Positions 8,092 to 32,000 of a DNA stretch of 32,000 bases are shown here, piece after piece. A model generated the notes under the pieces. It ran no database searches. It was not told where the DNA came from and was given only the letters and a program-made list of their open reading frames with translations. Source of the stretch: Thermofilum adornatum. Lineage in GTDB: Archaea; Thermoproteota; Thermoprotei; Thermofilales; Thermofilaceae. Made by a program: the position numbers and the translations under genes. Every line of letters starts with the position of its first letter. Position 1 is the stretch's first letter. Location of the stretch: contig NC_022093.1 in assembly GCF_000446015.1 (NCBI RefSeq), positions 1,560,001-1,592,000 on the forward strand. The letters are read 5' to 3'.

Positions 8092-8124
8092 TAAAACTGT
8101 AGAGCCTTGGAATTTCATTAATAG

Positions 8125-8979: not shown

Positions 8980-9042
8980 AGACTTGTGCAGAAGGAAGAG
9001 GTATAAAATATAAAGATTTCCTGTGACGGCTTAAAGAATTTT

Positions 9043-9654
9043 CTATGGTCCCAGAGGGAAGAGTACAATTGTTTCTAACAGCCAAGCCACGTGGCAAATC
9101 ATCGAAGCTGACAGGCCCAGTTTTTTAGCTGTGATGGCCATGTAGATGCCTATCGTAAGGGCTCCCAGTAGAAGTGATATGTTGAGGGTCCATATGTGGA
9201 CAAGGGTGTAGTACGATATGCTGAGCATATAGGCATGTATCCTCTTAAGCCTTTCTTCTAAGACTGCTAATTGGCCGCCCCTCCAGTATAGCTCCTCCAT
9301 TGCCCCTATTATTGTTAGGAAAAATGGCAGAAGCGTGGCGTCGCTAGACAAATAGATGCTTGTATAAACGTTTGAGACAGAGTGTTGTAGGTTTAAGGCT
9401 GTAAGGAAGATTTTTCCAAAGACAAATATACCGTAGAGGGGGAACGAGAGAATTAGTCCTGCCAGGGCACTCTTCCACGTGGGTCTCAGATTCCTGTGTA
9501 CTTTTTCCCTGTAGAATAGGAGAGTTAAGGTTCCCAGGAGAAGAGTAGCGAGAAGCATTGCTGTTATGAAGACTTCACGTAAAACTACGAAGACAAGTGG
9601 CCAGAGGAATATAGGTAGAGAAAGATACAATAGTTCAGTATAGCGCTTAAACAT
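9043..9654 (-). CDS. CPBP-family intramembrane glutamic endopeptidase (CAAX protease/Abi-like)
   Basis: About six TM segments. Motifs are MEELYWRG (EExxxR), YYTLVH and CHVAWLL, in the order expected for CPBP proteins. Confidence 0.8.
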   Translation of the reverse strand: MFKRYTELLYLSLPIFLWPLVFVVLREVFITAMLLATLLLGTLTLLFYREKVHRNLRPTWKSALAGLILSFPLYGIFVFGKIFLTALNLQHSVSNVYTSIYLSSDATLLPFFLTIIGAMEELYWRGGQLAVLEERLKRIHAYMLSISYYTLVHIWTLNISLLLGALTIGIYMAITAKKLGLSASMICHVAWLLETIVLFPLGP

Positions 9655-9667
9655 GTTTTCTACCTTG

Positions 9668-10066
9668 CTATCCGCCCATCTTTGTAGCTATCATCGAGAT
9701 AATCCTGCTTGCATATTCTTTCTTGTCTATTACCGCCCTCTCATGGACAGCATAGCCTATAAGCGTTTCTCCGCACCACGCCTCCAGCCACAAGACCACT
9801 CTTTTCCCGGTGTCACGCAGGACCCTGCCACGTATCTCGACCTGCGAGCCGAGTAGGGCTGGGGCAACGTGGTAGACATCGATGTGTACTCCTACGGTGG
9901 TCTGGCTCTCGGGTAGCTTGCCGTCGAGAAATATCCTGCTAGCCTCCTCCATGAATGCTATCATGCTTGGCGTAGAAAGTATTCCTGTCCCCTCTAGGGA
10001 GACATGTTTTGCAATGTGTTCGCGGGAAACTGTATATAACCTGCTAAAGGTTTCTCCTTGGCTCAT
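9668..10066 (-). CDS. Hotdog-fold thioesterase (FlK/4HBT-like)
   Basis: 132 aa. ILSTPSMIAFMEEASRIFL followed by GVHIDVYHVAPALLGSQVEIRGRV is the typical hotdog thioesterase pattern. It ends 13 nt upstream of the CPBP gene, so the two are likely co-transcribed. Confidence 0.7.
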   Translation of the reverse strand: MSQGETFSRLYTVSREHIAKHVSLEGTGILSTPSMIAFMEEASRIFLDGKLPESQTTVGVHIDVYHVAPALLGSQVEIRGRVLRDTGKRVVLWLEAWCGETLIGYAVHERAVIDKKEYASRIISMIATKMGG

Positions 10067-12068: not shown

Positions 12069-12869
12069 ATGCCCATGTTATTGAAGTGTGCCCTGCTTGT
12101 CTCTAGGCCAAGGGGGTGGAGGGCTTACCTCTGGATGGGGTTGCTAGGAATTCTCCAGGGCAAGCCCGAGCCCCAAATAGCTTTGGTGGGGCTGTATTCG
12201 CTTGTGTCTTTCCTTGCCACCGCCTTCGCTGTGAACAACTATTTCGACGTGGGGTCGGACATGCTTAACCCGAAAAAGTACAACCCGTTTATTGGGCACT
12301 GCGACAGGAGGGCTCTCTATGTTGTCCTACTTAACCAGGCTGTTGCCCTAGCCTTGGTAGCCTTGTTGACCCCTCTTTCCAGCTTCCTAGTTTATCTCTC
12401 CACTGTTGTTCTAGGTGTGGCTTATAGTTCTCCGCCTTTTAGGCTAAAGGCAAGAACCGGGCTAGAGCTGGTATCCCACATGCTGTATTTCGGGATACTC
12501 CTATTTTTGTTTGGCGCGTTGCTTTCTCATGTTCAGTTTAGCCAGCAAACCGTTGCAATAGCCCTAGTTATAGGTGTTTACTCTGCGTTTTTGCAGTTGC
12601 GCAACCTGAGGGACGACAGGGAGTTCGACGGGCTAATTGGAGACAAGACGCTCTTTGTAAGGTACCCAAATTTTTCGGCTCTGCTCCTCTATTCTACAGC
12701 GGCTTTGTCCCTTCTTGGTTCAGTATATGTTTTGCCCGTAAGCCTTGCTGTGGCCCTACCTGTTGCTGTAATCTTTGGCTGGAAGTATGGCTGGGAGAGG
12801 CTTGTCGATTCCTTTGTCGCTGTCTCGCTCAGCCTTCAAGTGGTGGCTAGGCTATGCACGTGCTTCTAG
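12069..12869 (+). CDS. UbiA-superfamily prenyltransferase with a variant first Asp-rich motif
   Basis: Polytopic. The first motif is NNYFDVGSDMLN where NDxxDxxxD is expected. The second motif is RNLRDDREFDGLIGDKTL. The ORF opens at TTG 12048 and I prefer ATG 12069, so the start is uncertain. Confidence 0.7.
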   Translation: MPMLLKCALLVSRPRGWRAYLWMGLLGILQGKPEPQIALVGLYSLVSFLATAFAVNNYFDVGSDMLNPKKYNPFIGHCDRRALYVVLLNQAVALALVALLTPLSSFLVYLSTVVLGVAYSSPPFRLKARTGLELVSHMLYFGILLFLFGALLSHVQFSQQTVAIALVIGVYSAFLQLRNLRDDREFDGLIGDKTLFVRYPNFSALLLYSTAALSLLGSVYVLPVSLAVALPVAVIFGWKYGWERLVDSFVAVSLSLQVVARLCTCF

Positions 12870-13945
12870 TGTCTGAGTGGGGCCCATGTAGGCATGGAGG
12901 CGTGGCTTCCCAGGTTTCCCTCCTCGAAAACTGGCTCAAGCAGAGGAGCTACCAGGTAAGCGTGCTATGCAACCATGGCTGCTGCAAGGGTTCTGGCCAT
13001 GTAGAGGCTTCAAGCCTCCTGCCACTAGACCATTACTTCGCGATTCCTTCGCCCAGCTTTATCGAAGAAACAGTACGGAGGCTTAAGCCCGACGTTATCC
13101 ATGTCCACCACGTCTTCACGCCGCTCTCTCTTGCAACTGGGGCCATCTGCAAGAGGCTCGAGGTTCCATGCATATTCACTAACCACTCCCTCCCACCTGT
13201 AGGCTCGCCTGACAAGTGGGCACCTCTCTCTTACGTCTCTCTGTATAGGTGGATCCTGAAACCAACCATTGCGACTGCTGTGAGCAATGCGGCGGCAGAT
13301 TTCTTAAAGAGATTTCTCGGGTGGAGAAACGTAAAAGTGATACCTAATGCTGTTGACTGCGAGAAGTACAGGCCAGGCGACAGGAAAAGGGAAAACATTG
13401 TGTTGTATGTGGGTAGGCTCGTTTGGCGAAAAGGGGTACATGTGCTGGTAGAGGCATCAAGCATACTAAGCGAGACGAGTAGAGACACCAAAATTATCAT
13501 TGCCGGCGACGGCTACATGAAGCCCTACCTTCAAGCAATAGCACCCAATGACGAAAGGGTTCTTTTCCTTGGCGAGGTAGATGAACAAAGAAAAATCAAG
13601 CTATACCAGGAGTCGAAGGTCTTCGTGTTGCCTAGCCTTGGAGGCGAAAGCTTTGGCGTGGTGCTAATAGAGTCATTTGCCTCCGGGACACCGGTCGTAG
13701 CCTCTAGAGTGGGAGGCATACCAGAAATCGTCGACCACTATGTCAACGGCTTACTGACCAGACCCGGGGATGCAAGAGACCTTGCAAAAGCAATAAAGCT
13801 TCTCCTAGACGACGAGGAGCTGTGGAGCCGCCTCTCGTATAATGCGAGGAAAAAAGCCGAAGAAAAATACTCGATAAGAAATATTGGAAGAATGTATGAA
13901 GAAACATATATCGAGACTCTGGAGAAAAATAAGGTTCAGAACTAA
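12854..13945 (+). CDS. GT-B glycosyltransferase, family 4-like
   Basis: MHVLLVSEWGPCRHGGVASQV is a GT4 N-terminus. ESFGVVLIESFASGTPVVASRVGGIPEIV is the EX7E block. It overlaps the UbiA gene by 16 nt. Confidence 0.9.
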   Translation: MHVLLVSEWGPCRHGGVASQVSLLENWLKQRSYQVSVLCNHGCCKGSGHVEASSLLPLDHYFAIPSPSFIEETVRRLKPDVIHVHHVFTPLSLATGAICKRLEVPCIFTNHSLPPVGSPDKWAPLSYVSLYRWILKPTIATAVSNAAADFLKRFLGWRNVKVIPNAVDCEKYRPGDRKRENIVLYVGRLVWRKGVHVLVEASSILSETSRDTKIIIAGDGYMKPYLQAIAPNDERVLFLGEVDEQRKIKLYQESKVFVLPSLGGESFGVVLIESFASGTPVVASRVGGIPEIVDHYVNGLLTRPGDARDLAKAIKLLLDDEELWSRLSYNARKKAEEKYSIRNIGRMYEETYIETLEKNKVQN

Positions 13946-13980
13946 TATTGATGTCTTTCCAGAATTCTCAATGTTTGACA

Positions 13981-14003
13981 TTTATTATTTTTTATTATTT
14001 TTA
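13981..14003 (+). terminator. Oligo-T tract downstream of the GT4 gene
   Basis: tttattattttttattattttta lies about 35 nt after the stop at 13945. Archaeal termination typically uses T-runs. It overlaps the 3' end of the convergent TrmB gene. Confidence 0.35.
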
Positions 14004-14720
14004 AATCGACTCTGCCATTCCTGGATTCTCGGCGTTTTTCCATATTCTCATAAAGTATTCAGTAGCAGCGCTTGCAATTTCTCTGTCAAGCACGAGTACG
14101 CCGCTCGTTTTTTCATGTAAGCTAAGCAATGAGAAGTGGAGTATAAGCTTCGAGCTGTCAGCAATGATAATATCTAAGGGGGAGTTGAGTTGGGCTTTTC
14201 TCCATTCCCCGTAGCGCGGAGCCTGCATATCTATGTCTATGACTCCTTTTATTTTCCCCTTGGAGACCAGGCTTTTTATATTCTCAAATAGCCTCTCAGA
14301 GGATATGACCATGTATACTTCGCTTGAGTCGGCTAAAAGGTTTCGTATAGCCTTTATGAGAGCTGTGAAATTTCTAATAACATAGATTCCCGTCGCTACA
14401 GATCCAGCTTTTTCGAGAGTCTTTAGTTTCTCTTCGGCCTCTTTAAGCCTTTCCTCTATCTTTCTTTTCTCTATTGCAATGGCTTCTTCGACCTTCTTTG
14501 GAGCATAAACTAAAGGGGACCGTGAAACCACCATTGCCCACCCTCGGGCTTCTAGCTTTTTTAGAGCATCGTAGACCTTTGTGTATGGGATATTAGTTGC
14601 ACTGCTTATTTCTCTGGGTGTAAGTTCGCCCATAGCTAGAAGGGCAGCATAGGCCTTTGCCTCGTAGTCTGAGAAACCTAACTTCCTTAGAACCTCGACA
14701 GCATCTCTGAATTCACTCAT
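14001..14720 (-). CDS. TrmB-family transcriptional regulator
   Basis: AVEVLRKLGFSDYEAKAYAALLAMGELTPREISSATNIPYTKVYDALKKLEARGWAMVV is the canonical TrmB N-terminal wHTH, followed by a coiled-coil linker and a C-terminal domain. It is divergent from the ABC operon. Confidence 0.85.
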   Translation of the reverse strand: MSEFRDAVEVLRKLGFSDYEAKAYAALLAMGELTPREISSATNIPYTKVYDALKKLEARGWAMVVSRSPLVYAPKKVEEAIAIEKRKIEERLKEAEEKLKTLEKAGSVATGIYVIRNFTALIKAIRNLLADSSEVYMVISSERLFENIKSLVSKGKIKGVIDIDMQAPRYGEWRKAQLNSPLDIIIADSSKLILHFSLLSLHEKTSGVLVLDREIASAATEYFMRIWKNAENPGMAESI

Positions 14721-14777: not shown

Positions 14778-15701
14778 ATGACCATAGCAATCGAGGCTGT
14801 CAATCTCGTCAAAGTCTTTGGGGGATTTAGGGCAGTTGATGGTGTAAACCTCAAAGTAGAAGAAGGAACGATTTTTGGTCTACTCGGACCAAACGGAGCT
14901 GGCAAATCTACAACAATCAGGCTCATTCTAGGCCTTCTCAAGCCTACTTCTGGCTATGTGAAAGTCTTTGGAATAAGCGTTGAAAAGAACCGCAAAGAAG
15001 TTCTAAAGATAACAGGTTACATGCCTCAGCAATTTAGCTTGTATGAAGACTTGACAGTAGAGGAAAATATGCGTCTCTATGCATCAATGTATGGTATTAA
15101 AAGTAAAGAAGCCAACGAGAGGATACAGCAACTCATGGACGAATTTAATTTAAGAGAAATTAGGAATAGGCTTGCAGGTAAACTGAGTGGAGGGATGAAG
15201 CAGAGATTAGCGTTGGCAGTGGCCCTCATACATAATCCCAAATTACTGGTCGTAGATGAACCAACCGCGGGTGTAGATCCGCCTCTAAGAAGGTATTTCT
15301 GGGAGAAGTTTAGAGAGCTGAAACGCCGAGGAGTAACTATCCTCGTGACTACCCACTACATGGATGAGGCAGAAAACTGTGACAGGATCGCCCTAATGAG
15401 TAGGGGACGCGTAGCCGCTGAGGGTACACCTCTCCAGATCAAGAGACTTGCTTTTGGAGGAGACCTTGTAGAGTTGGTTGTAGAAGGAGACCCCCGTCCA
15501 AAGCTAATCAACCTTGATGCCCAGATTTTAGAATTTGAAAAGGACGGATCCTATAGCAGGCTAAGACTACTTGTGTCTGATGCCTCCGAGAAGCTTGTCC
15601 TTTTGACGAAGAATTTCGAAAAGGAAGGTATCAAGGTGGTTCGAGCTTACGCCGTGTATGTTAGCTTGGAAGACGCCTTCATTAGGCTCACAAGTAGGTG
15701 A
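14778..15701 (+). CDS. ABC transporter ATP-binding protein (ABC-2/DrrA-like)
   Basis: Walker A GPNGAGKST, Q-loop YMPQQ, signature LSGGMKQR, Walker B LLVVDEPT, H-loop TTHYM. Confidence 0.95.
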   Translation: MTIAIEAVNLVKVFGGFRAVDGVNLKVEEGTIFGLLGPNGAGKSTTIRLILGLLKPTSGYVKVFGISVEKNRKEVLKITGYMPQQFSLYEDLTVEENMRLYASMYGIKSKEANERIQQLMDEFNLREIRNRLAGKLSGGMKQRLALAVALIHNPKLLVVDEPTAGVDPPLRRYFWEKFRELKRRGVTILVTTHYMDEAENCDRIALMSRGRVAAEGTPLQIKRLAFGGDLVELVVEGDPRPKLINLDAQILEFEKDGSYSRLRLLVSDASEKLVLLTKNFEKEGIKVVRAYAVYVSLEDAFIRLTSR

Positions 15702-15707
15702 TTATCT

Positions 15708-16808
15708 ATGGGAGCTCTCACTGCGCTGGTTATAAAGGATGTCAAGCAGCTTCTTAGAGACCCAAGGTCTTTAACCATGATTCTCCTCATGCCTCTAGCT
15801 GTAATGGCAATGTTCGTTGCAGGTTACGGCGAAGAAAAAAGCACAATCCCTATAGTCATAGTTAACTTGGATAGGGGCACTGCCTCATGGCAACTGATTG
15901 AGGCTTTGAGGACGAGTAGTACCTTCTCTATTGTTGCTTATGCCTCATCTATTGAGGCCGGTAAAAGCCTTGTACAGAGAGGAGTAGCTTACGCTGCTGT
16001 AGTTATCCCAGAAAACTTCACATATGATGTTTCTAGGGGACGTAGCACGCGGATCATTACAATTCTCGATGCAGCCTATGCAACTGTCTCAGAGCTAGTG
16101 TGGCAGTGGACCGTTGTCTCTACGCAGAGCTTTATGAAAAAAGCGTCAGAGCTTTACGGCACCTTCTATATAGAAGTACAGGAAGAAACAGTTTATGGCC
16201 CAAAAGTTAGCGCTGTGGATAGCTTCACTTCGACAATAATGGGTATTCTCCTTCACCTCGTTCCAATGAGCCTTATAGCTGTTTCAATTAGCCGTGAGAG
16301 AGAACGTAAAACATTTGAACAACTTATTATGGCTCCCATTTCGAGCTGGCACGTTGTTTTTGGGAAGTTTCTCGCATACGCATTGGTGACAGTAGCTGAC
16401 CTAGCCGTTACCCTCGCCTTTGCTGTTTATCTTCTAGGAGTAAGAGTAAAAGGTGACCTCTTCTCGCTTCTAATAGTCTCTTTGCTTATGTTGCTCTGCT
16501 CCCTAGCCATGGGGCTACTTATTTCTGCGGCATCCCGCAACCAGCTTCAAGCATATCAGGCAGCCATTTTCGTCTTTATCCCCTCAATGCTCTTTTCTGG
16601 ATTCTTTAGGCCTGTAGAATTGCTGTCTCCGGACGTTCAACTAGTCAGCAGATTGTTGCCTCTTTACTATTTCTTCAGGGCTTTCAGGAATATCCAGCTT
16701 AGAGGATGGTCGCTTTTTGACGTATCTTGGGACTGTCTAACACTCGGATTATTCACGTTTATCTTCTTGTTAGCTGCTGTTAGAGTTTTAAGATTAAAGG
16801 TGGAATAA
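15708..16808 (+). CDS. ABC-2-type transporter permease
   Basis: One N-terminal TM, a roughly 150-aa extracytoplasmic loop, then five TM segments, which is the typical ABC-2 permease layout. GGTGA lies upstream of the ATG, 6 nt after the ATPase stop. Confidence 0.85.
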   Translation: MGALTALVIKDVKQLLRDPRSLTMILLMPLAVMAMFVAGYGEEKSTIPIVIVNLDRGTASWQLIEALRTSSTFSIVAYASSIEAGKSLVQRGVAYAAVVIPENFTYDVSRGRSTRIITILDAAYATVSELVWQWTVVSTQSFMKKASELYGTFYIEVQEETVYGPKVSAVDSFTSTIMGILLHLVPMSLIAVSISRERERKTFEQLIMAPISSWHVVFGKFLAYALVTVADLAVTLAFAVYLLGVRVKGDLFSLLIVSLLMLLCSLAMGLLISAASRNQLQAYQAAIFVFIPSMLFSGFFRPVELLSPDVQLVSRLLPLYYFFRAFRNIQLRGWSLFDVSWDCLTLGLFTFIFLLAAVRVLRLKVE

Positions 16809-16809
16809 T

Positions 16810-19323
16810 ATGAGATGGAAAACAATTATTATAGGAATAGTGATCTTAATAGTACTCCGCATGCTTATAGCGCATGCTCAGCCAGTTTTCTCGCTGAATG
16901 ATTCCTACTGGCAGGCTCCTCCAATGAGCGGCGTCAATGATACGCTGTACGTTATCCTAGAGCATGAGAGCCTTGGCGAAAATGTATCTCTAAATGCAAC
17001 TCTAACAATACAGGGAGTCGCCCGATCAAACCTCACTGCGAATGCAAGCTATGTTGGGTATCTCGGTCAAGGAGCGCTCCTTCCCCTAAAATTCCAGGTA
17101 AATATTCCCAGCGGGGACCTAGCTTCATATTATCCGGCCCAGCTTCTAATTCAGTGTAACAATACATCTACTATTATCAATTTCAACGTCGGCTTCTCTG
17201 GCGGCCCCTCATTTACTGTAACATCTGATAAACAGGTTTTGTCAAAAGGAGAAAACAACTCAGTAACAATCACAGTCAAGGTGATGGGTGCTCCCGCAAG
17301 AAATGTTGAAGTACGCGTTACTCCTGCAAGCGCCTTTGTTACTGTTCTTGGAGAGTCTCTAAGCCGAAAAGGTCTTGTAAATGTAGGAGAGACCCTTACC
17401 CTGCCAATCAACGTAATGGTTGATAGCTCCGCGGGAGACAGCGTTGCTCTAACCGTCACAATTTCCTCTGAAGATTTTACCAGGACACTAACTACTCAAA
17501 CTGTAACCATTGGCTTTCAGGTTGTGAGAACTCGAGGTCTACCATTCTTTACCCTCACACTAACTCCAAATATTATTTCATCAGGTCAGAGGACACAGGC
17601 ATACCTGTACATTACCAATACTGGTCCTAGCCCTGCAAAAGATGTTAGAGTCTCAGTCTCTGGTCTTTCGCCTGGCCTAGCAGTGCTCTCTGGTTCATCG
17701 GCGTCACTGGGCGACTTTGCTCCAGGAGAAACAAAAGTTCTACCGCTTGTTATAAGGGCTGACAGAACCGCTGTCGGTGTAGCCCAGCTTCAATTATCCT
17801 TTTCCTTTTTCGATGAGAGTGGGAATCCCCATACGAGTATGTTGAATGTTGGCTTCGAAGTTGCAAGGTCTCCCACACCAATTCTATCTATTAGCTTACT
17901 GAACGGGACACTTCCATATGGCTTGAACTCCAAACTCGCAGCATCGATTATCAATATCGGAGATGCAACAGCACAAGACATAACAGTTGACGCTAGTCCG
18001 GGACCAGGCGTGTATGTTTTGGGAACTTCACGTTCACGGATTAAGCAACTAAGCCCAGGAGCAAGCTCCTTGATTACTTTAATGGTCAGATCTACCTCAT
18101 TGGAGGGGTCGGGGACTCTGAGTTTTCGAATACACTACTATGACGATTACGGCAATGCCTATGACGACATAATCCAAGTTTCGTTTAATGTTAGCCGTAG
18201 CGGCGCAGAGATAAAGTTGATCCTGCTTAATGAAACACTTCATCCAAACCAAGTTAACAGAGTTCTTCTCCTGATAAACAACACGGGATCAATAGACGTA
18301 AAGAATCTCACCTTGACACTGACTTCTCAGAGCCCAGACATAGGATCCGTTATTGGGCCCTCAAATATACACCTTGGTTCGCTACCACATGGAAATTCAA
18401 CCCTAGTTACATTCAATGTATTTGTACAGCCAAAAGTATACGGCGCCTTACAGCTCCTTGCAGCCGTTTCTTATACTTTAACAGACGGGAGGTTTGCCAG
18501 AGATGTGTATACTCTCGGCTTTGAAGTGCATGGAGACTGGGAACTAAGTGTCTCCTCTGTCACCACAGTCCCTACGGCAATCTTTCCAGGAGACAACCAG
18601 GTAATGCTTCGGGTTACTTTCGTAAACTCGGGGGACTATATGGCGAAAAATGTACAGGTTGACTTCCTAGGAGACCAATGGGTGAAGCCCAGCTCGGCAA
18701 GTAGCGCAGAGGCCTTTATTCCATACTTGCCTGTAGGACAGACTGTGACAATTAACTTTCTGGCCGATATACGTAGCGATGCACCAATAGGCAATCATAG
18801 ACTTGCTGTGAATGCAAGCGGGCGTACCATATATTTTACGTTAACAGTACTCGAGAAGGCGACTTTCAATATACGAAACGTGACAAGTCTTGAAGTGACA
18901 AGAGGTGGTAGAGGATATCGACTCGTATATGAAGTTGAGAACACGTCAAACATGACTGCCGACGACGTCCGTGTCGAGATGTTTTCACCCTTTGTCACAG
19001 GCACAACCAGCGTTTATATCGGGACTCTATCTGGACACGAGCGCAAGCTTGTAACCTTCGAGGTAGACATAGATCAGACAGCACCTATAGGCGAGCTGCC
19101 CGTAGACTTCAGGGTGTCCTGGACACAGGAAAACAGAAACCTTGATCAATACATTCGCAACTCAATCCATGTAAATCCGCCTAAACCTATCTCTAACCTG
19201 GTCTTCGTGGCCCTGATCCTCATATTCTTGGTTCTACTTGGCTACATGAAACGGGAAACTCTCAAAACATTTATTACACGAGTTGCTAGGGCTAAGGCGG
19301 AATCAACAAAGACTAACTCATAG
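16810..19323 (+). CDS. Large surface protein: signal peptide, about six tandem CARDB/COG1361 'S-layer domain'-like repeats, C-terminal TM anchor
   Basis: Repeats of about 110 aa fall between aa 135 and 790. Each has an NxG...A.(D/N)V.V motif: ITNTGPSPAKDVRVSVSG, INIGDATAQDITVDASP, INNTGSIDVKNLTLTLTS, FVNSGDYMAKNVQVDFLG, VENTSNMTADDVRVEMFS. There are many N-x-S/T sequons, and the C-terminus is LVFVALILIFLVLLGY followed by a basic tail. The start is 1 nt after the permease stop. Confidence 0.8.
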   Translation: MRWKTIIIGIVILIVLRMLIAHAQPVFSLNDSYWQAPPMSGVNDTLYVILEHESLGENVSLNATLTIQGVARSNLTANASYVGYLGQGALLPLKFQVNIPSGDLASYYPAQLLIQCNNTSTIINFNVGFSGGPSFTVTSDKQVLSKGENNSVTITVKVMGAPARNVEVRVTPASAFVTVLGESLSRKGLVNVGETLTLPINVMVDSSAGDSVALTVTISSEDFTRTLTTQTVTIGFQVVRTRGLPFFTLTLTPNIISSGQRTQAYLYITNTGPSPAKDVRVSVSGLSPGLAVLSGSSASLGDFAPGETKVLPLVIRADRTAVGVAQLQLSFSFFDESGNPHTSMLNVGFEVARSPTPILSISLLNGTLPYGLNSKLAASIINIGDATAQDITVDASPGPGVYVLGTSRSRIKQLSPGASSLITLMVRSTSLEGSGTLSFRIHYYDDYGNAYDDIIQVSFNVSRSGAEIKLILLNETLHPNQVNRVLLLINNTGSIDVKNLTLTLTSQSPDIGSVIGPSNIHLGSLPHGNSTLVTFNVFVQPKVYGALQLLAAVSYTLTDGRFARDVYTLGFEVHGDWELSVSSVTTVPTAIFPGDNQVMLRVTFVNSGDYMAKNVQVDFLGDQWVKPSSASSAEAFIPYLPVGQTVTINFLADIRSDAPIGNHRLAVNASGRTIYFTLTVLEKATFNIRNVTSLEVTRGGRGYRLVYEVENTSNMTADDVRVEMFSPFVTGTTSVYIGTLSGHERKLVTFEVDIDQTAPIGELPVDFRVSWTQENRNLDQYIRNSIHVNPPKPISNLVFVALILIFLVLLGYMKRETLKTFITRVARAKAESTKTNS

Positions 19324-25228: not shown

Positions 25229-25615
25229 ATGGCAGTCCAGTGGTGCGTAAAAGCAGTCAAAGACTATGTAGACAAGTGTTCTGAAACACTTTCTAGGGAA
25301 GAGTGCGCCAAGAGAGCAGAGGAAACAGTTGGCACGTGGACATACAGGGTCAACTATTCCTTCTTTATTTCAGGCGTATTCACTAGGGTCCTACAGAGAT
25401 TCATGCCAGACGTAGCCTGGAAAATCCACGACACCCTGGTAACAAGGCCGAGGCAGAGGATAGCTTTCGACGAGCAACTATACCTCAACCTTCTCAGGGT
25501 CTTCAGCGAGATAGAGAAAAGCCCACCGTCGCCAGAGGACAGGATACATGCAAGGAAGCTTAGAGAACTAATAGAGACAGCTCTCAGGCTTAGAAGCTCA
25601 ATAGAAAGAGTATAA
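25229..25615 (+). CDS. Hypothetical 128-aa soluble protein
   Basis: I prefer ATG 25229 within ORF 25082-25615, because the upstream part is A/T-rich with a TATA-like tttattaaaa about 26 nt before it. The sequence is helical and charged, with no recognised family. Confidence 0.5.
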   Translation: MAVQWCVKAVKDYVDKCSETLSREECAKRAEETVGTWTYRVNYSFFISGVFTRVLQRFMPDVAWKIHDTLVTRPRQRIAFDEQLYLNLLRVFSEIEKSPPSPEDRIHARKLRELIETALRLRSSIERV

Positions 25616-25662
25616 AACATTAATCAAATAAAGATTTATTAAAGTAGCCACAAAAGATACAC

Positions 25663-27033
25663 GTGGCAAGGATAAAAATAGGAGTAATAGGCGCGGGAAG
25701 CGTTGCCTGGAGCTCAAAACTGATACACGACCTTCTACACATGCCTACTCTTTACGGGAGCAAGGTATACCTGATGGACATAAACGAGGAGAGGCTCAGG
25801 CTTCTAAAGGGCTTCGCCGAGAGATATATGTCCGAGATAGGTGGAAACTACGAGTTCATAACTACCACAGACAGATTGGAGGCTATTAGGGACGCGGACA
25901 TAGTAATAAACACTGCGATGTATGGCGGCCACCAGTATTATGAGGAGATGCGCAGGATAAGCGAGAAGCACGGCTATTATCGTGGAGTAAACAGTACAGA
26001 GTGGAACATGGTCAGCGACTACCACACTATCTGGGGCTACTACCAGTGGAAGCTAGCAATGGACATAGCGGGGGAGACAGAGGAATACGCGCCAAACGCC
26101 TGGCTAATACAGCTAGCGAACCCAGTATTCGAGCTGACGACCCTAATTGCCCGTGAAACAAAGGCTAGGGTGATAGGGCTGTGCCACGGACACATGGGAT
26201 ACAGGGAGATAGCCCACACTATTGGCCTGGACCCAGACAAGGTGGACTTCGAGGCCATAGGGTTCAACCACGTCATATGGCTTACTAGGTTCAGGTACAA
26301 CGGGGAGGACGCTTACCCACTCATAGACAAGTGGATAGAGGAGAAGGCTGAAGAGTACTGGCAGGAGTGGAGAAAGACACAGGTAAACCCCTTCGACATC
26401 CAGATGTCGCCGGCGGCAGTAGACATGTATAGGCGGTACGGCTTGTTCCCAGTTGGAGACACTGTGAGGGGAGGCACGTGGATGTACCACTGGAACCTAG
26501 AGACAAAGAAGCAGTGGTTTGGGCCGACCGGCGGCCCAGACAGCGAGATAGGCTGGGAAATATACCTGACCCACGGCGAGGCCTGGCTAGAAGAGCTAGA
26601 AGAGGCTCTCAAAAACAACAGCCCATTGGCGCCGATGTTCCCCAAGGGATTGACGGGCGAAACAATAGTTCCCCTCATAAATTCACTCATACACGACGAG
26701 CCAGGTACATACCAGGTTAATGTGCTAAACATGGGGGCAATCGAGGGGTTGCCAGACAACATCGCCGTAGAGATACCAGCTACCGTAGACGGGAAAGGGG
26801 TGAAGCGCCCACAGGGGCTAAGGCTACCGGGAAGAATAATGAAGCTCGTACTCTGGCCAAGAATGCTCAGGGCAGAAATGGCCATAGAGGGCTTCCTAGA
26901 GGGCGGATTCCAGGTCCTAGTCGACTGGCTAATGCTCGACCCAAGAACAAAAAGCGAGAAACAAGCCGAACAAGCATGGCAAGAAATACTCTCCATCCCC
27001 GGAAACGAAGAAATGAAAAAACACTACAGATAG
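25663..27033 (+). CDS. aglA: Glycoside hydrolase family 4 (NAD+/Mn2+-dependent alpha-glucosidase, AglA-like)
   Basis: KIGVIGAGSVAWS (Rossmann), INTAMYGGH, YYRGV, GLCHGH, AYPLIDKWIEEK and LDPRTKSEKQAEQAWQEILSIPGNEEMKKHY are collinear with Thermotoga maritima AglA as I recall it. Confidence 0.9.
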   Translation: MARIKIGVIGAGSVAWSSKLIHDLLHMPTLYGSKVYLMDINEERLRLLKGFAERYMSEIGGNYEFITTTDRLEAIRDADIVINTAMYGGHQYYEEMRRISEKHGYYRGVNSTEWNMVSDYHTIWGYYQWKLAMDIAGETEEYAPNAWLIQLANPVFELTTLIARETKARVIGLCHGHMGYREIAHTIGLDPDKVDFEAIGFNHVIWLTRFRYNGEDAYPLIDKWIEEKAEEYWQEWRKTQVNPFDIQMSPAAVDMYRRYGLFPVGDTVRGGTWMYHWNLETKKQWFGPTGGPDSEIGWEIYLTHGEAWLEELEEALKNNSPLAPMFPKGLTGETIVPLINSLIHDEPGTYQVNVLNMGAIEGLPDNIAVEIPATVDGKGVKRPQGLRLPGRIMKLVLWPRMLRAEMAIEGFLEGGFQVLVDWLMLDPRTKSEKQAEQAWQEILSIPGNEEMKKHYR

Positions 27034-27206
27034 TATTTTTAATTTCGTCATTTCGATAACCGTTCCTTTTACATGACGCGCGCAGAATCTCATGTAGACA
27101 AGAAATGCCAATAAACGAGAGCACGACTTAAAAGCGAGGAGGCTATCAGAAAGCTTTAGTGCTAGCTCGCTATGTGTATTTCTCTTTGCTTAGATCTTTT
27201 ACTCCC

Positions 27207-27632
27207 CTACAATGTCTCGGGAACTAATGCCACACCTATATTGGATGCTTGCCTCCTCAGCTTTTCATCGAAGGTCGCTAGTGGAACATTTCTTCGCAGA
27301 GCTACTGAAAGAAAGATTTTGTCGTTGAAGCATGAGAGAGACAGGCCCTCATCTACAAGTGTAGAGATAGCCCAGCGGATCTCATCTAAGCCCTCCCTCA
27401 CCAATACGGACTTCTCGGAGGTAATATACTCGAGTACCTTGTCCCGAGCATCAGCTGTACTCATTTTTAACCCCTTCAGGAACCAAGCATACTCGTAGAT
27501 GACTATTAGGGGGATTATCCACCGGTTTAAACTGTCAAGTATATGGGAAGCCTCCTTGTGGTAGAGAGAATCCTCAAAGGTATCGTAGACAAGGATATTT
27601 GTGTCAATCACCGCCTCCGGCAATGTTTTCAC
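27207..27632 (-). CDS. vapC: VapC toxin (PIN-domain ribonuclease)
   Basis: AVIDTNILVYDTF carries the first catalytic Asp and VPLATFDEKL carries the C-terminal Asp. It is 141 aa with a GTG start and overlaps the upstream antitoxin by 29 nt. Confidence 0.85.
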   Translation of the reverse strand: MKTLPEAVIDTNILVYDTFEDSLYHKEASHILDSLNRWIIPLIVIYEYAWFLKGLKMSTADARDKVLEYITSEKSVLVREGLDEIRWAISTLVDEGLSLSCFNDKIFLSVALRRNVPLATFDEKLRRQASNIGVALVPETL

Positions 27633-27846
27633 CCAGCCCTTTAGCGATTATCCCATCAATTTCTTCCGGAGTAAGGGGTCTTCCAGCTCTAAAAGTCTTC
27701 CTCTTCAGAACTTTTTTCTCCATAATGATTCTCCCCTTTTCATCCACATACATGTCCAGGTAGTCGCCGATCTGCAGTCCCAATGCTTCACGTATCTCTT
27801 TTGGAATCGTTACTTGAAAACTCCTCGTTATTTTACTTCTCTTCAC
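27604..27846 (-). CDS. vapB: VapB antitoxin (AbrB/SpoVT fold)
   Basis: ITRSFQVTIPKEIREALGLQIGDYLDMYVDEKGRIIMEK is a SpoVT/AbrB motif. Confidence 0.85.
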   Translation of the reverse strand: MKRSKITRSFQVTIPKEIREALGLQIGDYLDMYVDEKGRIIMEKKVLKRKTFRAGRPLTPEEIDGIIAKGLGENIAGGGD

Positions 27847-27936
27847 AGTAACTCTTTAAAAATTACTTCTATAAAAACATTTCTACTTTATTCCATAGAA
27901 TCCTCCGAGAATAGAGATTTTTTCCTTACCACCTTG

Positions 27937-28177
27937 TTATCGGTTAGCTGTGCCTTGGCACGCGCAAAAAATGTATAGGAAACGGCTAGGAGGAACCGAG
28001 AGTTCTACAGATGTAACGTTTAAGCTGTCTTTCACAGCGGTATATAGGTTGGCGTATTTACAGCACGAAAATCAGTCTCTACCAGCTATTTTCTTTACCG
28101 GCGACTTAGTTGCCTGGACATGCCACTCATCAATCTTTGTTGTGGTGGCAAAGACTTAAAAAATAAATACACAACAT
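27937..28177 (-). pseudogene. Decayed paralogue of the secreted 'EWHVQ' protein family (in-frame TGA, N-terminal frameshift, 3' truncation)
   Basis: The minus strand reads ..ATTTKIDEWHVQATKSPVKKIAGRD*FSCCKYANLYTAVKDSLNVTSVELSVPPSRF.., with the TGA at 28074-28072. This aligns with the ORF at 31773: AITITNVNEWHVQATQPPVKKIAGRDLGNPAYGVKSGRVYSSIEDGLNVTYVEVSVP. A signal-peptide-like MLCIYFLSL (ATG 28177) sits in another frame. Confidence 0.75.
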
Positions 28178-28225
28178 GAAGAACAATAAGCAACAAAAAC
28201 ATTAACATCCCATGTTTCAACCCAG

Positions 28226-28639
28226 CTAGAAAATAAAGACGCTAGGAAGCCCAAGCATCCTTGCAATTATGATAATTACTATTATGAGAAACCATGGCGT
28301 AGAGGCGACCGCGAACACCCTTATGTCTGTAATGTTTCTATACATCGCGTAGAACACTATGGATATGCTAGCAAGCAGGGTATAGAGGAATAAGTGGAAT
28401 AGGAACTTCCCAACAAACACTGGGAAAAACTGGACAAGATACGCCACAGTGAAGCCATCTATAAAGGAAAGAACAATGCCAACCGCGAACGCGCTCCACT
28501 CATCCTCGCCCTTAGGCCTGCCCTGGAAAAGCCTAAGCGTCGCAGAAGCAAACACCAAGACCAGTCCCACAAGCGTCTGGACAATCATAGATAAATTTTT
28601 GCTAAAACGGGTATTTAAATTATTTAGTTCAAAACCCAC
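28226..28639 (-). CDS. Small 4-TM membrane protein, hypothetical
   Basis: 137 aa from GTG 28639 (the alternative Met gives MIVQTLVG). It has four hydrophobic segments and is transcribed divergently from the wHTH regulator at 28689. Confidence 0.5.
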   Translation of the reverse strand: MGFELNNLNTRFSKNLSMIVQTLVGLVLVFASATLRLFQGRPKGEDEWSAFAVGIVLSFIDGFTVAYLVQFFPVFVGKFLFHLFLYTLLASISIVFYAMYRNITDIRVFAVASTPWFLIIVIIIIARMLGLPSVFIF

Positions 28640-28655
28640 CCTTATAGACGCAAAG

Positions 28656-28666
28656 TTTATTTAAAA
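28656..28666 (+). promoter_or_regulatory. TATA-like box for leaderless gene 28689
   Basis: tttatttaaaa is centred about 28 nt upstream of ATG 28689. Confidence 0.45.
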
Positions 28667-28688
28667 GACCGAAAAACTCACAGTTAGG

Positions 28689-29567
28689 ATGAAAGAATAC
28701 ATTACAGCCATACTCCTCCTCGCTTTGGCAACCACGGCCACACTTCTCAGCCTCCAGACCCTCACCCAAAAAGCAACAGCTACACCGACAGGCCTCATCG
28801 TTACAAGCCCCACGACAAGCCTGATAAAAACTGAGACAAGGAACAACACGCACATCTATACCCTGCAGGTTCACGTTAACCCCCTATCAAGCCTCCAAGC
28901 CGAAAAGATTGCCTGCATATACGGCGCCAAAGTCACGGCACTCAACACGTCGGCTGGAAAAGCAACTCTCGAGAAAAACCCAGACTCTGCATGTATCTTT
29001 TTCACAATCGACAACCCCTCCATACGAGAAGCCGAGGCAACAGTGCTCGTCGCCGCCACAATACCTTCACAGGAAAAAGGCGAGCCACCAATACTCCTAA
29101 TAGGGGCAATAGCAGGCATAGCGGCGGCAAGCTACCTGACCCAGACAGAGAGCGGGAGAGACAAACTCTTCAAGGCAATATCCATACCAGTAGGCTACTA
29201 CGTCGCACGCCACGAAGACGTCCTCAGAATCAAAAAGAGGGTCGAAATACTAGAATACCTCAAAAAAGAGCCCGGCGCAAGCATGCGGCGCATATCACGC
29301 GACACAGGCATAAGCTTCGGCGAGGTCCAGTGGCACCTCTCGATCCTCGAAAGGCTGGGATACGTACGAAGAGCAAGGATAGGAAAATGGACAGTCTACT
29401 ACCCAACAGGCACCCCAGCAGAGAAATGGCTTGAAAACTTCATATCGGACGAGCTAGGCGAAAAAATCACGCCACAAACAGCCGCCACCCTAGCGGCCAG
29501 GCTAGAGCCATACCTATCAACAGGCACGATACCGACGAGCCTAATTAGGGAAGCAATCTCCAAATAA
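28689..29567 (+). CDS. Membrane-tethered wHTH transcriptional regulator (TM, about 110-aa extracytoplasmic domain, TM, cytoplasmic wHTH)
   Basis: TM1 is ITAILLLALATTATLLSL and TM2 is PPILLIGAIAGIAAASYL. The wHTH is RVEILEYLKKEPGASMRRISRDTGISFGEVQWHLSILERLGYVRRARIGKWTVYY. The architecture resembles COG2512-type 'membrane-associated transcriptional regulators', from memory. Confidence 0.7.
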   Translation: MKEYITAILLLALATTATLLSLQTLTQKATATPTGLIVTSPTTSLIKTETRNNTHIYTLQVHVNPLSSLQAEKIACIYGAKVTALNTSAGKATLEKNPDSACIFFTIDNPSIREAEATVLVAATIPSQEKGEPPILLIGAIAGIAAASYLTQTESGRDKLFKAISIPVGYYVARHEDVLRIKKRVEILEYLKKEPGASMRRISRDTGISFGEVQWHLSILERLGYVRRARIGKWTVYYPTGTPAEKWLENFISDELGEKITPQTAATLAARLEPYLSTGTIPTSLIREAISK

Positions 29568-29650
29568 AAAGTTTGAGAAGCAAATCATCTTGCTAGGAAA
29601 TTATCAAACTTGAAAGTTTACCCCTGCAACCAGAGGAATAACTGAACTAA

Positions 29651-29662
29651 AAAATTTATAAA
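29651..29662 (+). promoter_or_regulatory. TATA-like box plus GGTG Shine-Dalgarno-like element upstream of gene 29696
   Basis: aaaatttataaa sits at 29651-29662. GGTG at 29687-29690 is 5 nt before the ATG. Confidence 0.4.
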
Positions 29663-29695
29663 CCCCAGTTTGACAACTTACCAAAAGGTGAAAAA

Positions 29696-30250
29696 ATGCA
29701 ACTGAAAAGGACAACACTAACAGCTCTACTGATAGTACTAGCAACGCTCTCCTTCGCCACCGCAGCAATAACACTCACCAACATAACCGAGTGGCACGTA
29801 CAGACCCCTGGAACACCGCCAGTCGTCAAGGTGAAAGGCGCAGACGCGACGGGAAGCCTCCTCAGCGTTTCTACGTATACTGCTAGTGATGGAACCAACA
29901 GGACGGTAATAACAATCAAGGGCTACACGGGAGACCCCACATACTACAGCGAAGCCATCAAGATATGCAACACGTATGGAACAAGCTCATTCACAGTAAG
30001 TCTAAAATACAATGGAGTACTAAGTGGAAACTGGACATACGTAAAGTACTTGAAGCTCTGGCTTGGCACGCTTGGCCCACTCACTATTGACAGCTCAACA
30101 AGCGTGGGTACAACTCTTGGTTCGGTCACACTGAATCCGGGACAATGCGTCTCTGTTCCAGCCGAAGTACTAGTCCACGCGAATACTCCTTCATCTCAGT
30201 GGAACACGGACTTGATAACCATAGAAGTCGACGTAGTCTCTACTGGATAA
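29696..30250 (+). CDS. Secreted 184-aa beta-rich protein, 'EWHVQ' family member 1
   Basis: Sec-type signal MQLKRTTLTALLIVLATLSFATA/AITLTNITEWHVQ. The mature part is Thr/Ser/Val-rich with N-x-S/T sequons and a CARDB-like stretch (AIKICNTYGTSSFTVSL...SVTLNPGQCVSVPAEVLV). Confidence 0.7.
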   Translation: MQLKRTTLTALLIVLATLSFATAAITLTNITEWHVQTPGTPPVVKVKGADATGSLLSVSTYTASDGTNRTVITIKGYTGDPTYYSEAIKICNTYGTSSFTVSLKYNGVLSGNWTYVKYLKLWLGTLGPLTIDSSTSVGTTLGSVTLNPGQCVSVPAEVLVHANTPSSQWNTDLITIEVDVVSTG

Positions 30251-30318
30251 GCTGAGTAGGGCAATTGAACTAAAATCTTTAAATAATATTTTTTTCTATA
30301 ATTTTTAGGTGTTGCTTT

Positions 30319-31770
30319 GTGGATAGCCAGCCTGCCAGGTTCAGGAAAAGCAGGGTTCTAGCAATAATAGCTGTTATCGTTTTGGCTAGCTTCCTCACGC
30401 TTCTAGCAGTTTATCCTCTCGGCATCCAGGCTGTCATCCTTGGAGGCACAAAAGACGTCTGGGCATACTCCGACGGGAAGCCGGTTAGCGGGGCTGTCCA
30501 GGTCTACGCTTCTAATGAGACTGTTTACTGTTTTCCCGGAATTGTCGAGCTGAGGAATAGCGGCATAGCTGGCCTGCCCTACACGCTAGGCGTGTCTCTT
30601 AGGCCAAGTTCCGGCCTCGAGTTTCTCGAGGTTAGGGCTAATGGTAGCATGGTGCTAGGTTTTGGCCCTGGCCTAAACTATTCTGGTAGTCTGAGGCTTG
30701 ATCCGGGGTCCAGTGTAAAGCTAGATCTATGTCTAAGGGCCGGCAGGCAAGGCTCCTTCATGCTGACATTTGTGGACCCGAGGTATGAGCGTGCTACGAT
30801 GAGCGTGGTCACTTTTTCCTATGTTCTTGTCGACTGGTGGAACAACTCTTTCACGAGGCGGATAACTCTGGCCCCTACTGTTTCTAGGGAAGGCTTGGCA
30901 CTCTTCGAGATTACTGCGGATGGCACCGTGTACGTGAACGGGAAGCCTGTGAGGAAGGTTTCGAGCCTGGAGGGTGTCGAGGCTAATGGGCTGGCTGTTG
31001 TCTTGAAGAGCGGTGGGGCCCGTTACCTTGTCCCATTCCAGGTCGAGTCTTGGGCAAAAAGACCTGACGGCGTCCTATATCCGGCCAGAATTAAGAGTGG
31101 ACGTGAGCAGATGTGGGGATATGATAGGCTCGTCTTCTCCGCGTACCTAACAAATGGTTCACGCATAGAGATCTATCTTGGAGGACGCCTGACAGCAAAC
31201 TTTACTGGAGGCGTAGAGGTTAGGGGCGACACAGTTGTCTTCGGCTCTGAGCGCGCCACGCTTAACGAGTGGGGCTTTTTCAGCGAGGGCTGGGGTGTCA
31301 ACCTCTCGGGCTACATTGTCTACCCGTACCAGGCCAGGCGTATAGGGTACAGCGACGCTGGCACGTGGAGACAGCTGGTTAGTGGGCCTGTCCGGACTAT
31401 TTCCTGGTTTAATACTTCTGGCTTCTCAGACTACAGGATAGAGTCCGCGGTAGCCTTCTGGGGTAGGGGGGTAAACGCTACACAGATGTATGTCTGGCCC
31501 AGTGTCGACTTTAGGGGCATTGTTTTGGAGTGGGTCTCGCCAATAATATACATGGGCAAGGGCTGGACAATGAGCTTCGACTGTGGAACCACGTGTAGCT
31601 CGCTTCCAGTAAAGGTGTTGCCGGGCAACGAGACAAGGGTCCAGCTTTGCCGGGACTTCTTTACGCCTGGAGGCGCACGGTACGGCTACTTCCATATCGC
31701 GCTAGTCAAGGCTCCACTAGCAGAAATAAGGAGCATGGCCGCGAGCTTTTCGAGCTTCCCGGGTGGCTAG
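30319..31770 (+). CDS. N-terminally TM-anchored 483-aa extracytoplasmic protein (beta-sandwich domain plus DUF2341/LamG-like region)
   Basis: GTG start with AGGTG 8 nt upstream. The TM segment is VLAIIAVIVLASFLTLLAV. Residues 45-165 echo the 184-aa protein (IVELRNSGIAGLPYTLGVSL...SLRLDPGSSVKLDLCLRA). VDWWNNSFTRRITL at about aa 171 resembles the start of DUF2341 domains (tentative). Confidence 0.65.
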   Translation: MDSQPARFRKSRVLAIIAVIVLASFLTLLAVYPLGIQAVILGGTKDVWAYSDGKPVSGAVQVYASNETVYCFPGIVELRNSGIAGLPYTLGVSLRPSSGLEFLEVRANGSMVLGFGPGLNYSGSLRLDPGSSVKLDLCLRAGRQGSFMLTFVDPRYERATMSVVTFSYVLVDWWNNSFTRRITLAPTVSREGLALFEITADGTVYVNGKPVRKVSSLEGVEANGLAVVLKSGGARYLVPFQVESWAKRPDGVLYPARIKSGREQMWGYDRLVFSAYLTNGSRIEIYLGGRLTANFTGGVEVRGDTVVFGSERATLNEWGFFSEGWGVNLSGYIVYPYQARRIGYSDAGTWRQLVSGPVRTISWFNTSGFSDYRIESAVAFWGRGVNATQMYVWPSVDFRGIVLEWVSPIIYMGKGWTMSFDCGTTCSSLPVKVLPGNETRVQLCRDFFTPGGARYGYFHIALVKAPLAEIRSMAASFSSFPGG

Positions 31771-31772
31771 GC

Positions 31773-32000
31773 GTGAGGAGGATTGAGGCGCTCCTGCTTG
31801 CTGTGCTTTTATGTGTAGGCGCTTTAGCGGCAATCACTATAACGAATGTAAATGAGTGGCACGTCCAGGCGACCCAGCCGCCCGTAAAGAAAATTGCCGG
31901 TAGGGACCTTGGGAACCCAGCCTACGGCGTTAAGTCTGGTAGAGTATATTCGAGTATCGAGGACGGCTTAAATGTTACATACGTTGAGGTGTCAGTTCCA
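31773..32000 (+). CDS. Secreted 'EWHVQ' family member 2, 3' end outside the window
   Basis: GTG at 31773 lies 2 nt after the upstream stop. Translation is VRRIEALLLAVLLCVGALA/AITITNVNEWHVQATQPPVKKIAGRD..., and the frame is open to the window end. Confidence 0.65.
   Translation, partial: MRRIEALLLAVLLCVGALAAITITNVNEWHVQATQPPVKKIAGRDLGNPAYGVKSGRVYSSIEDGLNVTYVEVSVP

Follow-up and report, generated by a model that had tools for sequence, protein, structure and literature searches.

What kind of surface structure is encoded by the genes at the far end of this stretch of the Thermofilum adornatum chromosome: a filament of a class not described before, or a member of a system already known from other archaea? 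The stretch (hereafter the window) comprises 32,000 nucleotides (nt), positions 1,560,001 to 1,592,000 of contig NC_022093.1. A sequence-only reading of the window had assigned four co-oriented, tightly spaced genes to an uncharacterised filament or adhesin module under a membrane-tethered regulator. We find that the cluster is a known filament system, the archaeal bundling pilus (ABP) of the TasA superfamily, represented here by a previously unannotated member, and not a new family; with high confidence we assign the region from 28226 to beyond 32000 as the ABP locus of Thermofilum.

The four open reading frames (ORFs) lie where they had been placed (28689-29567, 29696-30250, 30319-31770 and 31773-32000), with the GTG start of the last one 2 nt past the preceding stop codon, and the successive intergenic gaps are 128, 68 and 2 nt. 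A divergent gene that the sequence-only reading lacks, and two promoter-like boxes, complete the list of features (lengths of proteins in amino acids, aa):

28226..28639, minus strand: gene for a small membrane protein with four transmembrane segments (4TM), a 137-aa ORF recognised by its blastp homologues and four hydrophobic segments.

28689..29567, plus strand: membrane-tethered winged helix-turn-helix (wHTH) regulator, 292 aa, Pcal_0905-like, recognised by Pfam, topology and orthologues.

29644..29662, plus strand: promoter-like box GAACTAAAAAATTTATAAA (GAACTA element and TATA box), recognised by motif conservation; a putative promoter or operator.

29696..30250, plus strand: abpA, predicted major pilin, 184 aa, recognised by phmmer, family profile and Foldseek.

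30267..30285, plus strand: second promoter-like box GAACTAAAATCTTTAAATA, with the same motif as the abpA box.

30319..31770, plus strand: abpB, putative TapA-like accessory protein, 483 aa, GTG start, recognised by synteny and hhalign.

31773..32000, plus strand: 5' end (76 codons) of a third structural gene, GTG start, which runs off the window; recognised by a near-identical ORF in the metagenome contig L019 (fetched loci are numbered L001 and so on below).

The 184-aa protein identifies the system. A phmmer search of the PDB sequences matched it to 7UEG_A, annotated 'Pilin' (E=1.2e-15, aa 12-181 against 13-199), and a profile of 41 family members matched the same entry with E=4.2e-36 (aa 4-182 against 4-200). 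The pilin in 7UEG is AbpA (Pcal_0910), of which the archaeal bundling pilus of Pyrobaculum calidifontis is built; AbpA is homologous to TasA, and its copies assemble through donor-strand complementation (PMC9245690). An AlphaFold2 (AF2) monomer model of the 184-aa protein (predicted local distance difference test score, pLDDT, of 82) has a well-defined beta core, and with this model Foldseek ranked 7ueg_A first among PDB structures (E=1.2e-11, TM-scores 0.70/0.72, root mean square deviation 3.3 Å over 175 columns, 30% identity). The Sulfolobus threads (7pnb) came second (E=2.4e-4, TM-score 0.58), and all other matches had TM-scores <=0.35. By homology, the 184-aa protein is assigned as AbpA, a predicted jelly-roll pilin of the TasA superfamily. 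Since it belongs to the bundling-pilus family, the earlier view that its sequence is unlike those of TasA-like bundling pili, and hence that the family is a different one, was wrong; so was the statement that none of the four genes matches a characterised family, which a plain phmmer search contradicts. The confident matches of the protein, by profile and by structure, are to a filament subunit.

The relationship is visible at the level of this subunit and not in the domain databases. When the four ORFs were scanned against Pfam and NCBIfam, only the wHTH domain gave a match, with none to TasA/camelysin, DUF1102, CARDB or DUF2341; for the 184-aa protein, the TasA/camelysin model PF12389 (Peptidase_M73) gave no Pfam match up to E=1, and its link to TasA runs solely through the published AbpA comparison. 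Likewise, neither phmmer nor hmmsearch gave a sequence match to Saci_0406, the subunit of the Sulfolobus acidocaldarius threads, which it resembles at the level of the fold only, with 12% identity. Close AbpA homologues are limited to Thermofilum, Infirmifilum and other Thermofilaceae. A HMMER search over 1.84 billion cluster representatives returned only 47 proteins at E<=1e-3, which makes this a small family, and the database homologues are all labelled 'hypothetical protein'.

The correspondence with Pcal_0910 extends to the mature N-terminus. The Sec-type leader proposed for the 184-aa protein is present as a signal peptide of aa 1-23 (29696-29764), with K4 and R5 in the n-region followed by a hydrophobic core, and the predicted cleavage ATA|AIT aligns exactly with AMA|T25 of Pcal_0910, the mature end seen in the cryo-electron microscopy map (PMC9245690). 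Beyond it lies the predicted donor strand (about aa 24-46; 29765-29833), whose motif TxTNxTxW lines up with Pcal_0910, and it is in this post-cleavage strand that the invariant positions of the AbpA family cluster (T26, T28, N29, T31, W33). The mature N-terminus AITLTNITEWHVQ is kept as AITITNVNEWHVQ in the partial ORF at the edge of the window (41% identity, E=7e-10), which upholds the claim of a conserved, extended mature N-terminus. In the AF2 model, aa 22-42 have a pLDDT of about 52 and no secondary structure, as would be expected of a strand without an intramolecular partner. Cys91 and Cys151 are conserved and aligned with the cysteines of Pcal_0910. Pyrobaculum AbpA is glycosylated at N37, N78 and N93 (PMC9245690); the sequon N68-R-T, invariant in the AbpA family, aligns by eye with N78, the alignment shows no conserved equivalent of N93 in the 184-aa protein, and additional sequons occur at N29, on the donor strand, and at N112.

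The 483-aa protein is encoded directly downstream of abpA in every Thermofilaceae locus fetched. It has an N-terminal hydrophobic helix (aa 13-31), three beta-rich domains and 10 N-X-S/T sequons; its AF2 model (pLDDT 70.7) is all-beta and multidomain, with an N-terminal helix and then three beta-rich regions, a layout that matches the published description of AbpB (PMC9245690). Nine sequence relatives were found, all of them in the Thermofilaceae, and blastp gave no homologues outside this family. Profile comparison reaches further: by hhalign, the Thermofilaceae family aligned colinearly from the N-terminus across 226 columns (E=1.1e-4, probability 57%) with one built from the proteins encoded next after abpA in five Pyrobaculum/Thermoproteales loci (411-420 aa, at the Pcal_0909 position); these values are supportive and not strong. 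The motifs common to both profiles are PLGxQA/PGGExA after the hydrophobic helix, LYASN/LYSSP and DWWNN/DWYPG. In the window the first of these reads PLGIQA (30415-30432); its P..QA is invariant in 10/10 Thermofilaceae AbpB sequences, as is SSFPGG at the C-terminus (31756-31770). Either motif might mark a processing site, supply a donor strand or act in sorting, and the N-terminal helix is possibly a retained anchor, or else a cleaved signal peptide with a possible site at IQA|V. We infer that the 483-aa protein is AbpB, a TapA-like accessory protein.

No Pfam or NCBIfam model fits the 483-aa protein, an exact look-up of its sequence found no record, its profile matched no PDB sequence, and a Foldseek search of the PDB with the whole model gave generic beta-sandwich matches only, which do not confirm a TapA-like fold. 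A pilin-like first domain, said earlier to echo the small protein, was considered and dropped: blastp gave E=0.46 between the two proteins and hhalign of the family profiles a probability of 6%. Among the Pyrobaculum loci, several (L010, L011, L012) have two tandem abpA paralogues before abpB, for example at 7920-8510 and 8661-9248 of L012. In P. oguniense TE7 (L016), abpB is seemingly split into overlapping ORFs at 8550-9122 and 9050-9778; this could reflect a frameshift or a sequencing error.

The ORF that follows abpB had been taken for a second small paralogue of the pilin. Its 76 codons cover a signal peptide and then a donor strand like that of AbpA (AITITNVNEWHVQATQPPVKK), and reach the window edge within a pilin-like domain. 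A search of the large protein database with the 76-aa fragment found no match, and its continuation was located in metagenome contigs with a back-translated DNA pattern. This gave one contig, L019, which is 93.7% DNA-identical to 25524-31999 of the window, colinear with it, and reaches 1.28 kb further. The fragment is identical in 75 of 76 aa to the ORF at 6276-7571 of L019, the full product of which has 431 aa and consists of a pilin-like domain (about aa 1-190) and an unrelated C-terminal domain in which Pfam finds no match; phmmer matches the 431-aa protein directly to 7UEG (E=6e-4, aa 7-154). The protein at the same position in T. pendens (525 aa) is 56% identical to it over aa 1-189, and the C-terminal parts are unrelated, that of T. 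pendens containing DUF2341 and a LamG-like segment.

Other close strains have a third gene of another type, encoding 687-708 aa, for example in L018, the AbpB of which is 91% identical to that of the window. Proteins of this type are full-length orthologues of the Pcal_0904-type protein (~740 aa) encoded in the Pyrobaculum operons (32-43% identity, E down to 1e-155). The Pcal_0904 type (687-755 aa) is found in the sister strains L018/L002 and in L006-L008, and its N-terminus is AbpA-like (hhalign probability 98%, E=1.5e-13). DNA identity between the window and L018 stays high to the end of the donor strand, the signal peptide included, and then drops abruptly. This collapse, together with the 431-aa ORF of L019, therefore indicates that the last ORF encodes the beginning of a protein of modular build and not a small paralogue. 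Its N-terminal module appears to be common with the Pcal_0904 type and the remainder not, and the third gene is best read as encoding a predicted pilin-like domain with its own donor strand and an exchangeable C-terminal domain.

Upstream of the pilin genes, two hydrophobic segments of the regulator (aa 4-22 and 133-151) enclose an extracytoplasmic domain of ~110 aa with 2 Cys and 2 N-X-S/T sequons, a topology that places the DNA-binding domain in the cytoplasm. The wHTH domain (aa 183-241) matches the Pfam models HTH_HVO_0163_N (7.7e-10) and HTH_24 (5.3e-9), and the protein is thus the membrane-anchored wHTH regulator with an extracytoplasmic domain that it had been taken for. Compared by blastp against a 716-ORF database, as was the 4TM protein, it has orthologues of the same architecture in Thermofilaceae loci and, at the Pcal_0905 position, inside Pyrobaculum/Thermoproteus ABP loci (E=4e-13 to 5e-9). 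In the conserved recognition-helix motif G.VQWH...LER.G, residues G211, Q214, W215, H216, L220, E221 and R222 are invariant, and V213 and G224 nearly so.

The 4TM gene is divergent and occupies the same place in Thermofilaceae loci, with 79-95% protein identity in L001/L002/L003 and 46-49% in L006/L008. It matches the 120-147-aa 4TM proteins in the Pyrobaculum/Thermoproteales ABP loci L009, L010, L011, L014 and L016 (E=3e-8 to 1e-4) and has no match in Pfam. Its relatives start at an internal Met, from which the gene would span 28226-28588 (120 aa). These matches identify it as the predicted orthologue of the 120-aa 4TM protein of the Pyrobaculum ABP operons (Pcal_0907/0908-like).

The order of the genes, 4TM on the minus strand followed by regulator, abpA, abpB and third gene, is repeated in seven Thermofilaceae loci (L001, L002, L003, L006, L008, L018, L019), and homologues of the 4TM protein, the regulator and the pilin-headed protein lie within Pyrobaculum/Thermoproteus ABP operons. 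The closest relative is the Thermofilum sp. metagenome-assembled genome (MAG) GCA_022759215.1, with 93-95% protein identity. Wang et al. (2022; PMC9245690) reported AbpA and AbpB as conserved in the Thermoproteales and Thermofilales, and stated only abpA and abpB as shared between the orders; we find five gene families common to the ABP loci of both, namely 4TM, regulator, AbpA, AbpB and the pilin-headed large protein. In relatives the third gene is the end of the cluster and is followed by a major facilitator superfamily transporter (L018), an AT-rich spacer (L019) or unrelated genes (T. pendens), with neither a signal peptidase nor further paralogues past it in these three. The expectation that more components lie beyond 32000 thus finds no counterpart in L018 and L019, where the cluster stops. 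In L006 (Thermofilaceae MAG SKYB99, 12244-14695), the third gene is followed by genes for a secreted WbsX-like glycosyltransferase/GH99-like protein (473 aa) and a 319-aa coiled-coil protein with terminal hydrophobic segments, which may be lineage-specific additions to the ABP locus.

How the genes are expressed is suggested by a motif, GAACTAnnAnnTTTAnAnA, that occurs exactly twice in the window (29644-29662 and 30267-30285; 0 expected by chance), each occurrence ending 34 nt before a start codon, of abpA and abpB respectively. It recurs upstream of abpA in all 10 Thermofilaceae loci covering that region, T. pendens among them, and upstream of abpB also in L001, L018 and L019; the abpB box sits between the abpA stop codon and a T-run. 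We interpret the box as a TATA box preceded by an element specific to this locus, a candidate promoter/operator. Because abpA and abpB each have a promoter-like box of their own, the pilin genes are not simply co-transcribed with, or 'under', the regulator gene, and the description of a module under the regulator needs to be amended in this respect. The obvious candidate for a protein that binds the GAACTA element is the regulator. An 8-11-nt inverted repeat at 29569-29611, between the regulator gene and the abpA promoter, was examined as an operator and is not relied on, being kept in the closest relatives only. The inverted repeats noted within 29569-29611 and 29598-29679 are AAGTTTGAGAA/TTATCAAACTT and a pair on either side of the abpA TATA box, AAATTATCAAACT/AGTTTGACAACTT. 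They are conserved in the closest relatives alone, and might act as an operator or terminate transcription of the regulator gene.

Variation between strains is concentrated in particular parts of the locus. Against a background DNA identity of 95-99% between the window and L019, the 3' half of abpA (29991-30284) is only 61-72% identical, so that aa 99-184 of the pilin share 56% identity and aa 1-98 share 90%. The regulator ectodomain region (28644-29091) is 86-91% identical in DNA; at the protein level, aa 1-132 are 87% and the remainder 98.8% identical. Moreover, among the window, L001, L002, L018 and L019, the alleles of the C-terminal half of AbpA are distributed independently of the type of the third gene. 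This mosaic of exposed parts suggests recombination and/or diversifying selection acting on what are predicted to be exposed surfaces.

From these components, a mechanism can be proposed on the model of the Pyrobaculum pilus. AbpA would be exported by Sec and cleaved at ATA|AIT by the housekeeping signal peptidase, and its free N-terminal strand, beginning AITLTNITEWHVQ, would enter the open groove of the next subunit by donor-strand complementation. The outcome would be a chaperone-free, glycosylated extracellular filament able to bundle and to link cells in biofilms. AbpB may start the filament, anchor it at the membrane, or both. The third protein would probably join the filament by AbpA-like strand exchange and display its strain-variable C-terminal domain. 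The regulator, a putative one-component system with a sensor outside and a DNA-binding domain inside, would couple an extracellular cue to the transcription of abpA and abpB, probably acting on the two GAACTA-TATA boxes, and the 4TM protein would be a conserved membrane component. Of the functional logic set out in the sequence-only reading, the small secreted beta-rich subunit, its conserved N-terminus, the larger accessory protein and the pilin-like relative stand; the uncharacterised family, the pilin-likeness of the 483-aa protein and the small paralogue do not.

Several observations weigh against assigning the locus to the bundling pili. The donor-strand glycosylation site of Pyrobaculum, N37, is not conserved, and an N29-I-T sequon is found in Thermofilum instead. 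In T. pendens, abpA, abpB and the third gene occur without an adjacent regulator or 4TM gene; as neither stands beside its abpA, these two are not obligatory neighbours, and their absence there may account for the two-gene statement of the 2022 paper. Furthermore, strand insertion and bundling are carried over by analogy from a Pyrobaculum AbpA of 30% identity, the Thermofilum filament being known from its genes alone. An alternative reading accepts the AbpA homologue and its polymerisation by strand donation, and takes the product to be single thread-like filaments or a secreted mesh, and not cell-anchored bipolar bundles. The Sulfolobus thread subunit is, after all, the second-best fold match; TasA-superfamily relatives such as AbpX form meshes; and the C-terminal half of AbpA, the would-be surface of contact between filaments, is the part that varies most between strains (56% against 90% identity). 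We consider this improbable, though worth bearing in mind, as the likeness in sequence to AbpA is far stronger, the threads having no sequence match at all, and as abpB, the regulator, the 4TM gene and the gene for a large pilin-headed protein are common with the Pyrobaculum bundling-pilus operon.

Far less probable still is that these are non-filament surface proteins (S-layer-associated, lectin or carbohydrate-binding, or solute-binding), with the conserved N-terminus representing a signal peptide and linker. The low-ranking Foldseek matches of the AbpA model, to jelly-roll carbohydrate-binding modules and ephrin-receptor domains, and the DUF2341 and LamG-like segments of the T. pendens third-gene product could be read in this way, but those matches have TM-scores of 0.22-0.35 against 0.70 for 7UEG, and the invariant positions of the family (T26, T28, N29, T31, W33) fall on what is the donor strand of the solved filament. 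The view from which the question began, that of a new family of donor-strand filaments with no sequence relationship to TasA-like pili, threads or cannulae, could draw on the fact that no Pfam or NCBIfam model fits the 184-aa or the 483-aa protein and that all database homologues are called hypothetical. It is refuted by the full-length homology to 7UEG AbpA, in single-sequence and profile searches alike, and by the top structural match, and AbpA and AbpB had already been placed in the Thermofilales (PMC9245690); we accord it a negligible probability, the lowest of the three.

The assignment as a bundling pilus locus is made chiefly by comparison with the Pyrobaculum calidifontis system (AbpA Pcal_0910, AbpB Pcal_0909, operon Pcal_0903-0910; PMC9245690). 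The pilins are homologues by both sequence and fold, and agree in cleavage position, donor-strand motif, Cys pair and, by eye, the N78 sequon; the two systems also share an AbpB-like gene directly downstream, the membrane-anchored wHTH regulator, the 120-aa 4TM protein and a large AbpA-headed protein. They differ in gene order: the regulator and 4TM genes are upstream in Thermofilum, with 4TM divergent, whereas in Pyrobaculum they stand between abpB and the gene for the large protein. The Thermofilum locus has one 4TM gene where the Pyrobaculum operon has two, and lacks the GTPase; its AbpB is ~70 aa longer and remotely similar; and its third gene, judging from L019, is of the 431-aa type with a different C-terminal domain and not of the ~740-aa Pcal_0904 type.

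A more distant parallel is the tapA-sipW-tasA operon of Bacillus subtilis. Both systems have, in Thermofilum by prediction, a secreted jelly-roll donor-strand subunit and an adjacent, lower-abundance beta-sandwich accessory protein that initiates or anchors the fibre, TapA being a strand-donating filament initiator (PMC10151520). The B. subtilis operon includes SipW, whereas the Thermofilum locus and its relatives have no dedicated SipW-type signal peptidase in or beside the locus; for AbpB as for AbpA, the relation to TapA and TasA rests on the published comparison. The Sulfolobus acidocaldarius threads (Saci_0406, 7PNB) are also a donor-strand filament of the Thermoproteota in the TasA superfamily.

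The layout of the third gene, with a pilin-like domain and a separate variable domain, is that of a pilus-borne adhesin, and the tip adhesins of chaperone-usher type 1 and P pili (FimH, PapG) are likewise composed. By analogy, the third-gene product is likely a minor or tip, adhesin-like subunit. In FimH, the N-terminal domain is a lectin and there is no donor strand, whereas the third-gene product has its pilin-like domain at the N-terminus, with a predicted donor strand of its own; moreover, the Thermofilum system has no chaperone, usher or outer membrane, and the position of the third protein in the filament may differ. For the AbpX and Tafi loci, minor and tip subunits and transcription regulators have been reported, and in the literature we found no published description of tip or minor subunits, or of adjacent regulators, for AbpA loci.

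The remainder of the window is ordinary Thermofilum chromosome, with genes for cytochrome bd oxidase, a TrmB regulator, an ABC-2 transporter and a CARDB protein, alcohol dehydrogenase, an amino-acid permease, GH4 and VapBC. The CARDB protein (837 aa, 16810-19323), which also contains NPCBM-associated and DUF11 repeats, is encoded directly after the ABC-2 transporter pair (14778-16808) and a divergent TrmB regulator, and is a separate surface-protein module unrelated to the ABP locus. The VapBC-type pair lies on the minus strand between the GH4 gene and the ABP locus (27207-27846), with a PIN gene at 27207-27632 and a MazE/AbrB-like gene at 27604-27846; it is present at this place in L001 and L019 and absent in L002 and L018.

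Taken together, the observations could be joined into a single reading, which we hold tentatively and regard as somewhat doubtful as a whole: a five-gene core extending across both orders; a pilin-headed terminal or minor subunit with a swapped C-terminal domain (the 431-aa, the 525-aa DUF2341 and the ~690-750-aa types); a regulator that senses through a fast-evolving ectodomain and drives both boxes; and a mosaic AbpA that tunes bundling. If this were true, variation in the exposed half of AbpA would tune which filaments bundle together and lead to strain-specific linkage between cells. The locus does not add a new class of archaeal filament; instead, a cluster of unannotated 'hypothetical protein' genes is placed in the bundling-pilus/TasA system. 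Modest refinements to that system are its core of five genes, the modular make-up of the third structural gene, the paired promoter-like boxes and the mosaicism of exposed parts. The shared genes and boxes are concrete candidates for the anchoring, initiation, tip and regulation functions of the ABP, and as such may be useful to work on archaeal biofilms.

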